DNA of 64,000 bases, taken from Octopus vulgaris. Taxonomy: Eukaryota. Made by a program: the position numbers and the translations under genes. This document shows, in pieces, positions 20,119-20,773 of the stretch (the stretch's first letter is position 1; every line of letters starts with the position of its first letter). The stretch lies in NCBI GenBank assembly GCA_951406725.2, contig OX597827.1:40734001-40798000 (forward strand), read 5' to 3'. The notes under the pieces are model-generated. The model did not search any database, was not told where the DNA came from, and was given only the letters and a program-made list of their open reading frames with translations.

Positions 20119-20768
20119 TTTTACATGCCGAAATCTACTTGGTGAAATTAATGATTATTCCAAATTAATTAATTTCACCCTATATTATTACTGATAACCA
20201 TATTTCATCCCAGTAAATGACCACAACATCTTGTCTTAGCTGCACGCTGGTGGGAAGGGGTTGGTAACACAAACTTTCATTCACACTTTGAATTTGGTGA
20301 TACTGGTAACGGCTTTAGCTCGCTCTGATACTGAGTTGAGATGATGCCTTCTAGTACCTCGAAATTTAATATACAATTATTCATAATTGTAGTGTCCTAC
20401 GCTGATGAGAAAAGAAGTTGGGTAAGACATAATTATCTAATTCTTATGCTTTCCTAAAACTTAATTTCGAAACGTACGTCCGTAGGTGACTTAAAATTGT
20501 ATGATAGATTGCCGTCATTTCTTTCTCTCTTGCCTGTCTGTGTTTGCCTTTCAAGTGCTGGGGTTTTACTGAGATCTCCCTTTTGGTAGAAAGAATAGCT
20601 ATAACTCTTTGACTGCTATTTCTAAATTCGGTGTGTGGTGAGGCAAATCCTTGCTAAACCCATAATTACTTAGTATTACTTAAACTTTCCTCGAATGAGG
20701 CTTTTACATGCCGAAATCTACTTGGTGAAATTAATGATTATTCCAAATTAATTAATTTCACCCTATAT

Positions 20769-20773
<5 letters not shown>
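20119..20773 (+). mobile_element. Non-autonomous hammerhead-containing unit with 72-bp terminal direct repeats, ending in (TA)n
   Basis: 20119-20190 is identical to 20702-20773; internal hammerhead; related tails at 42539-42598(-) and 62453-62632(+), also adjoining TA-rich tracts. Confidence 0.75.
20396..20486 (+). ncRNA. Type I hammerhead ribozyme, canonical core
   Basis: cctacg CTGATGA gaaa...tttc GAAA cgtac GTC cgtagg: 6-bp helix I, ~60-nt helix II domain, palindromic ACGTACGT helix III, GUC triplet (predicted cut after 20480). Confidence 0.85.

Follow-up and report, generated by a model that had tools for sequence, protein, structure and literature searches.

The window analysed here, a 64-kb stretch of Octopus vulgaris DNA (contig OX597827.1) to which all positions refer, contains on its forward strand a 655-bp insertion at 20119-20773. 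The first and last 72 nucleotides of this insertion (20119-20190 and 20702-20773) form an exact direct repeat with a spacing of 583, and the match extends neither to the left nor to the right. Repeat comparison together with frame and Pfam scans describes the whole insertion as 583 + 72 bp, or 1.12 units of a non-coding element: one full unit of 583 bp with 36% GC (20191-20773), preceded by the last 72 bp of a second, 5'-truncated unit (20119-20190, 100% identical to 20702-20773) that forms a pseudo-LTR. The longest stop-to-stop frame within the unit is 69 amino acids and none of the 12 frames overlapping the element matched a Pfam family. A (TA)n tract found in the tandem-repeat listing (20772-20835, +) directly follows the 3' end and is the likely target of the insertion. 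The identical 72-bp terminal repeats, the 583-bp period, the lack of an ORF and the end in (TA)n had all been proposed in a first-pass annotation and are borne out.

The full unit is predicted to adopt a branched fold, with a linear z of -2.68 and equal stability in 0 of 100 shuffles. Folded as a circle it is again branched, with 62% of its bases paired, a z of -2.67 and none of 60 shuffles as stable. Since the circular fold is no better than the linear one, folding is uninformative on a circle.

The hammerhead motif and its fold

A type I hammerhead motif lies in the interior of the unit at 20396-20486 (+), with predicted cleavage after C20480, as characterised by a descriptor scan, two-dimensional folding and contig variants. 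Helix I (20396-20401/20481-20486) has 6 Watson-Crick pairs, the core consists of CUGAUGA at 20402-20408 and GAAA at 20469-20472, the cleavage triplet GUC occupies 20478-20480 and helix III comprises 2 bp closed by the palindrome GUAC. The base of helix II (20409-20412/20465-20468) has 4 bp, beyond which loop 2 is replaced by a 52-nt hairpin extension (20413-20464, +) with 16 further predicted pairs. The core halves are 60 nt apart, which agrees with the GUC hammerhead and its helix II of about 60 nt reported in the first-pass annotation. With 6 bp in helix I, 4 bp at the base of helix II and a short palindromic helix III, the geometry is that called 'canonical metazoan type I' in PMC4209133 (this and the other papers are cited for the portions of their text available), the form found in animal non-LTR retrozymes, except that helix II is longer than canonical.

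When both strands of the 64-kb window were scanned with the descriptor, the hammerhead at 20402 was the sole one of such quality. An equally good hammerhead occurred in 0 of 100 Markov-shuffled windows under strict criteria (helix I of at least 6, helix II of at least 4 and helix III of at least 2 pairs) and on average 0.03 times under loose criteria. Rfam returned no hammerhead match, either at the gathering threshold in the 64-kb window or at E<=10 in 20100-20800, probably because of the long helix II, a feature which suggests that descriptor-based screens undercount such ribozymes. Metagenome scans with two patterns gave no matches. Ten viral loci carrying the core pattern were set aside as chance matches, as none has helix I or any BLAST similarity.

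In the two-dimensional model, which leaves tertiary contacts outside, the active hammerhead fold lies 3.2 kcal/mol above the minimum-energy fold and takes an ensemble share of 0.002; it is not the minimum because the core can pair with GUC. The palindromic helix III is predicted to pair in trans at -11.2 kcal/mol, and such pairing could permit folding as a dimer, as in dimeric hammerheads. The ribozyme is solitary both at the locus and in the window, and the locus does not show the tandem of two or more ribozymes that is the active retrozyme form. It fits the 'solo monomer' class only and, having a single ribozyme, cannot release a unit-length circle alone.

Decayed hammerheads of the minimal PLE type (CUGACGA, a short helix II and GAAACG) also occur in the window, in another repeat family that lies beside (TA)n. 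Its copies lie at 13672-13783 (+), 17331-17560 (+), 17571-17791 (-) and 52070-52312 (+), those at 17.3-17.8 kb forming an inverted pair that flanks a TA tract.

The 3' end, related copies and neighbouring repeats

A terminal stem-loop (20724-20762, +) precedes the apparently fixed 3' end. Its predicted fold has a z of -4.6, with none of 200 shuffles as stable. BLAST detected a diverged (71%), 5'-truncated copy at 62450-62633 (+), which has a weaker version of this hairpin (z -2.0, 7 of 200 shuffles) and ends at the same TATTATTA before (TA)n as the main insertion. Between the two copies the G-C pair 20727/20759 is replaced by A-U (62586/62619), one compensatory change. By folding and by this change, the stem-loop is a candidate recognition or initiation signal for a reverse transcriptase. 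The 62-kb copy sits within the internal (TA)n of a SINE-like repeat, and its flanks match one repeat that is found unbroken at, for example, 34677-34315 and 57668-57294.

The third copy, at 42538-42599 (-), is a 62-bp fragment within TA-rich tracts, 97% identical to 20623-20684. It lacks the last 89 nt of the unit and is therefore internal and not a tail. The two copies had previously been described as related tails adjoining TA tracts, a description which holds for the plus-strand copy, a 3' piece, and fails for the minus-strand one. The 3' end is shared by both copies that have the terminal hairpin, that is by two of all three copies, the third being the internal fragment. Such sharing (n=2) suggests that reverse transcription begins at a fixed place and that the 5' end varies. 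The circularly permuted ends for which a check had been proposed did not appear, both hairpin-bearing copies stopping at the same base (n=2).

The 3' ends of all three copies lie within 5 nt of a tract of at least five TA, compared with 7.7% of window positions; the window is microsatellite-rich, with 178 tandem-repeat rows, and its SINE-like repeats resemble octopus ones. On its left side the main copy is not bordered by (TA)n, the nearest tract lying at a distance of 653 nt, and 20119-20773 shows no target-site duplication. The locus thus resembles Penelope-like elements in having a microsatellite or AT-rich target and no clear TSD, with TA absent on the left, where the main copy abuts a truncated inverted repeat.

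The neighbouring repeats can be described in their own right. To the left, 19388-20117 contains a 247-bp direct repeat with a period of 357 (19388-19634 and 19745-19991) and, in inverted orientation, a 129-bp arm (19989-20117) ending where the insertion starts. This partial tandem plus inverted copy is also PLE-like, and a possible degenerate hammerhead-like core was spotted by eye near 19674-19710. The structure cuts off the decayed 3' part of a LINE-type reverse transcriptase (18382-19390), whose RVT_1 matches are weak and below the Pfam cut-off. On the right, directly after the TA tract, is a foldback or MITE-like element with 89-bp inverted arms (20835-21077) and a weak relative at 47527-47677. 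A tRNA gene with a long variable arm lies at 41670-41751 (-) (Rfam RF00005, 50.5 bits).

The family in public sequencing runs

Part of the 583-bp unit is contained in 20 of the 24 public runs listed (four organism labels, ten studies), and the best run contains 0.64 of the unit's words; none of the 20 is registered as RNA. Four runs were compared. Contigs matching the unit numbered 2,280 and 2,286 in two DNA runs and 195 and 102 in the two others (X8 and X19), which are tentatively taken as RNA and, consisting of contigs only, were not used for expression. All 30 bins of the unit are covered by run contigs, most of which are under 99% identical to it. The family is abundant in public runs.

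Three diverged contigs from run X8, with 7, 16 and 12 differences, bridge the junction 20190/20191, covering 31 letters or more to either side of it; these were found among 32 of 4,882 pieces. Three other junction-crossing pieces (two from X19 and one from X4) have fewer than 31 letters on one side and were not counted. Because diverged contigs bridge the same tail-to-head junction, this junction is a trait of the family and not a local duplication, and the 72-bp repeat is a partial tandem (pseudo-LTR) and not an LTR. The partial tandem forming a pseudo-LTR that is typical of non-autonomous Penelope-like elements is thus found at 20119-20773.

Among the 40 of 112 difference rows listed, the only change in the hammerhead core falls at 20406, the free N7 position, and the helix II extension 20413-20464 carries both changes and insertions in variant contigs. 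In run X19, C20396T occurs in a contig that reaches across both ends of helix I, and G20486A accounts for 328 of 371 depth. Together these two changes would turn C-G into U-A and keep the helix I pair. By contrast, the other three runs have G20486A without C20396T, and the distal pair of helix I is not constant. The spared core and the paired change in helix I suggest, from sequence variation, selection on the ribozyme fold.

In both DNA runs, at least 99% of the depth disagrees with the window copy at 6 of the 40 listed positions, so that this copy carries about 1% or more of private change. Such a value of about 1% is compatible with identical 72-bp repeats (probability 0.23), and the absence of mismatches over 72 positions bounds the divergence of the repeats below 4.1%. 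The recent insertion that had been read from the identical repeats does not follow from them, given this bound and the private differences at 6 of 40 positions; 'young' is a fair term for the insertion at 20119-20773.

Contigs with other upstream sequence join before 20586 or 20608 and have only the last 170-190 bp in common with the unit (24 of 294 loose contig ends were listed), and one X8 contig piece has 82 unmatched letters before 20374. Contigs that share just the last 170-190 bp represent either sister families or the autonomous partner. The summed contig depth is 3.6-5.2 times higher 3' than 5' of the cut site in the four runs, a measure that cannot rank parts of the unit; the excess would fit 5' truncation and was not counted as a signal of it. 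Nor was an X19 piece starting at 20482 taken as a cleavage end, since ends cannot be read from contigs and the listing contained no cluster of ends.

Origin of the insertion and relation to known systems

Several published properties of Penelope-like elements (PLEs) and retrozymes bear on the origin of the insertion. PLEs insert as partial tandems truncated at the 5' end, with the overlap making up a pseudo-LTR; this layout is also known from non-autonomous PLEs, and several PLE clades target (TA)n (PMC8557442). In the supplement of that paper, a preference for (TA)n is given for each of five Naiads from cephalopods and for one Hydra element from octopus, and Hydra-clade hammerheads are located in sense orientation, a short way ahead of the 3' end. 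AT-rich DNA is nicked by purified PLE protein, whose reverse transcription begins at fixed internal sites inside a stem-loop that lies downstream of the hammerhead; the enzyme used unprocessed RNA in vitro, and cleavage by the hammerhead was not required (PMC11167929). In coral, mussel and axolotl, circles of retrozymes with a type I hammerhead are abundant (PMC7229834). Retrozymes derive from PLE pLTRs, span 51-972 bp per unit and commonly occur as solo monomers (bioRxiv 10.64898/2026.07.22.740005).

Taken together, these observations make it probable that 20119-20773 is a solo copy with a single ribozyme, belonging to a family of the animal non-LTR retrozyme type that is non-autonomous and depends on Penelope; its insertion at a TA microsatellite likely took place by target-primed reverse transcription. 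The unit reads like a PLE without an ORF: a body, the hammerhead, 293 nt with stem-loops, an apparently fixed end and TA. In the proposed mechanism, tandem source copies elsewhere would be transcribed, their hammerheads would cut at GUC and the unit-length RNA would probably be ligated into a circle, by analogy with the coral, mussel and axolotl retrozymes. The RT/GIY-YIG protein of an autonomous PLE, acting in trans, would nick (TA)n, and copying, starting from a fixed internal position 293 nt 3' of the cut and immediately behind the terminal stem-loop, would cross the ribozyme site, run 72 nt beyond one full unit and then stop. A cleaved linear RNA template would yield only 293 nt. As the 655-bp copy crosses both the GUC site and its own start point, a template continuous across GUC is needed. 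We place a circle a little short of an even chance; an uncleaved tandem transcript is nearly as likely, and a template jump is a minor possibility. The slight lean to the circle comes from the abundant circles formed by retrozymes with the same hammerhead type. The first-pass annotation had described a 1.1-mer expected from reverse transcription around a circular or tandem RNA. The junction contigs and the architecture support a more-than-one-unit copy of a 583-nt non-coding hammerhead element; the data are compatible with a circular as well as with a tandem template.

Pfam analysis of 82 chosen window frames (12 at the element and the others picked from 281 non-repetitive segments) detected no PLE reverse transcriptase or GIY-YIG domain of an autonomous partner, the only hits being weak RVT_1 matches from the neighbouring LINE. 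Ten distinct window motifs were compared with the published Naiad, Chlamys and Hydra consensus sets, in which line wraps can hide matches, and none matched except one 10-mer occurring twice within unrelated GC-rich sequence. By eye, the 3' ends of the octopus Naiad and Hydra elements are unlike the 583-bp unit. The partner comparison covered the Naiad, Chlamys and Hydra families.

The main rival, which we judge unlikely, is that the unit is an internally repeated 3'-terminal segment (3' UTR or pLTR) of a longer coding PLE and the locus its 5'-truncated insertion. It would suit the joins to different upstream sequence at about 20374, 20586 and 20608, and 5' truncation is the rule for PLEs, some of which have 3' tandem repeats (PMC8557442). 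However, no frame of the element holds a coding remnant, the sequence upstream of 20191 in diverged contigs is, where visible, the unit's own 3' end, and the consensus motifs and octopus 3' ends compared above offer no counterpart. We give still less credence to a SINE-like linear element with a vestigial ribozyme, in which copying would, on integration, jump from the 5' end of one template RNA to the 3' end of a second and so create the overlap, neither a tandem source nor a circle being involved. A jump between like molecules would yield the same junction each time, and any element using target-primed reverse transcription would leave dispersed copies that are 5'-truncated and fixed at the 3' end; yet the unit has no Pol III or tRNA head (the sole tRNA match in the window is at 41.7 kb), and the listed variants leave the core unchanged except at N7 and include the paired helix I change in one subfamily.

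An LTR-type non-autonomous element (a plant-like LTR retrozyme or a TRIM) with 72-bp LTRs is largely refuted. Identical direct terminal repeats do flank a short non-coding interior, but they neither begin with TG nor end with CA, no 4-6 bp target duplication was found, the ribozyme is of type I and lies in the interior, outside the 72-bp repeat, and the partial copies are 5'-truncated rather than solo LTRs. A hammerhead that arose by chance within an ordinary repeat is hardly credible: the Rfam result and the departure of the active fold from the minimum-energy fold would be expected of it, whereas the presence of all core bases, three helices and a palindromic loop 3, unmatched in the 100 shuffles, and a variation pattern that spares the core argue against it. 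Several observations also count against the retrozyme-type, Penelope-dependent copy that we favour. Neither the short run contigs nor the window include a two-ribozyme tandem locus, the window frames and the Naiad, Chlamys and Hydra consensus sets yielded no autonomous partner, the modelled active fold lies above the minimum by the 3.2 kcal/mol given above, the left flank lacks the TA tract expected from a clean microsatellite insertion, one of three copies ends elsewhere, and the relatives with other upstream sequence (20374, 20586/20608) could be a longer coding element. In addition, only 1 of 9 predicted retrozyme dimers from Xenopus cleaved in vitro (bioRxiv 10.64898/2026.07.22.740005).

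A more specific reading is tentative: a very high-copy cephalopod retrozyme, expressed as a circle of about 583 nt, might combine two modules, a hammerhead whose helix II is extended and a 3' stem-loop that covaries and fixes the start of the Penelope reverse transcriptase. If true, this natural element would tie retrozyme circles to the internal initiation of PLEs, would allow testing whether more-than-unit insertions come from circles, and its 52-nt hairpin would be of a length that standard ribozyme screens miss. Published models differ on how more-than-unit copies of Penelope-like elements and retrozymes arise and on the role of hammerheads in this, with a circle model in PMC4209133 and PMC7229834 and dispensable cleavage in PMC11167929. 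As the family is very numerous and its ribozyme site lies 293 nt from an apparently fixed 3' end, the genome-wide distribution of 5' ends would discriminate between the models, with a pile-up at 20481 indicating a cleaved linear template and run-through a circle or an uncleaved tandem. Our literature search found no paper on a cephalopod retrozyme, and the family may be catalogued under another name in Repbase or Dfam. Cephalopods are not mentioned in the available main text of PMC7229834 and PMC7761336, nor are ribozymes in that of the 2026 octopus repeat annotation PMC13282606.

Among known systems, the closest are the animal non-LTR retrozymes (Cervera and de la Pena 2020, PMC7229834; Li, Clavereau, Pollet 2026, bioRxiv 10.64898/2026.07.22.740005), which like the unit are non-coding with a GC content below 50% and share with it a type I hammerhead, a short palindromic helix III, a head-to-tail organisation and solo monomers. 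At 583 nt the unit exceeds the range of about 170-400 nt of the invertebrate retrozymes studied and falls inside the 51-972 bp of the 2026 survey. Unlike these retrozymes it has a 52-nt hairpin as loop 2, and the locus has a single ribozyme. Its 3' end, at (TA)n, is apparently fixed and bears a conserved stem-loop, whereas a 2020 review (PMC7761336), in its available text, reports no conserved motif pointing to a partner.

The non-autonomous PLEs, such as MRC1 of Chlamydomonas, and the pLTR of EN+ PLEs (PMC8557442) resemble the element in their partial tandem forming a pseudo-LTR and in 5' truncation; a microsatellite target and no visible TSD are also common to the non-autonomous PLEs and the element. 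A sense-strand hammerhead upstream of the 3' end is shared with the Hydra clade described there. The PLE hammerhead is of the minimal form, whereas that of the element is canonical with a long helix II, and no inverted copy of the 583-bp unit is adjacent, unlike in the non-autonomous PLE/pLTR layout. The Poseidon element PAc of Anolis (PMC11167929) has a fixed genomic 3' end downstream of the hammerhead at a stem-loop, as is apparent for the element too, and shares with it an AT-rich target. By contrast, PAc is coding and initiates about 90 nt past the cut, compared with 293 nt in the non-coding 583-bp unit; its hammerhead needed protein, and cleavage was dispensable for its insertion in vitro. 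Plant LTR retrozymes (PMC7229834, PMC7761336) likewise have terminal direct repeats, a scale of 600-1000 nt and no coding capacity, but carry a type III hammerhead within each LTR, a PBS/PPT and a 4-bp TSD, whereas the ribozyme of the element is of type I and interior, and no TSD was found. The class is thus already known, and the longer unit, the long helix II and the defined 3' signal are variant traits within it.
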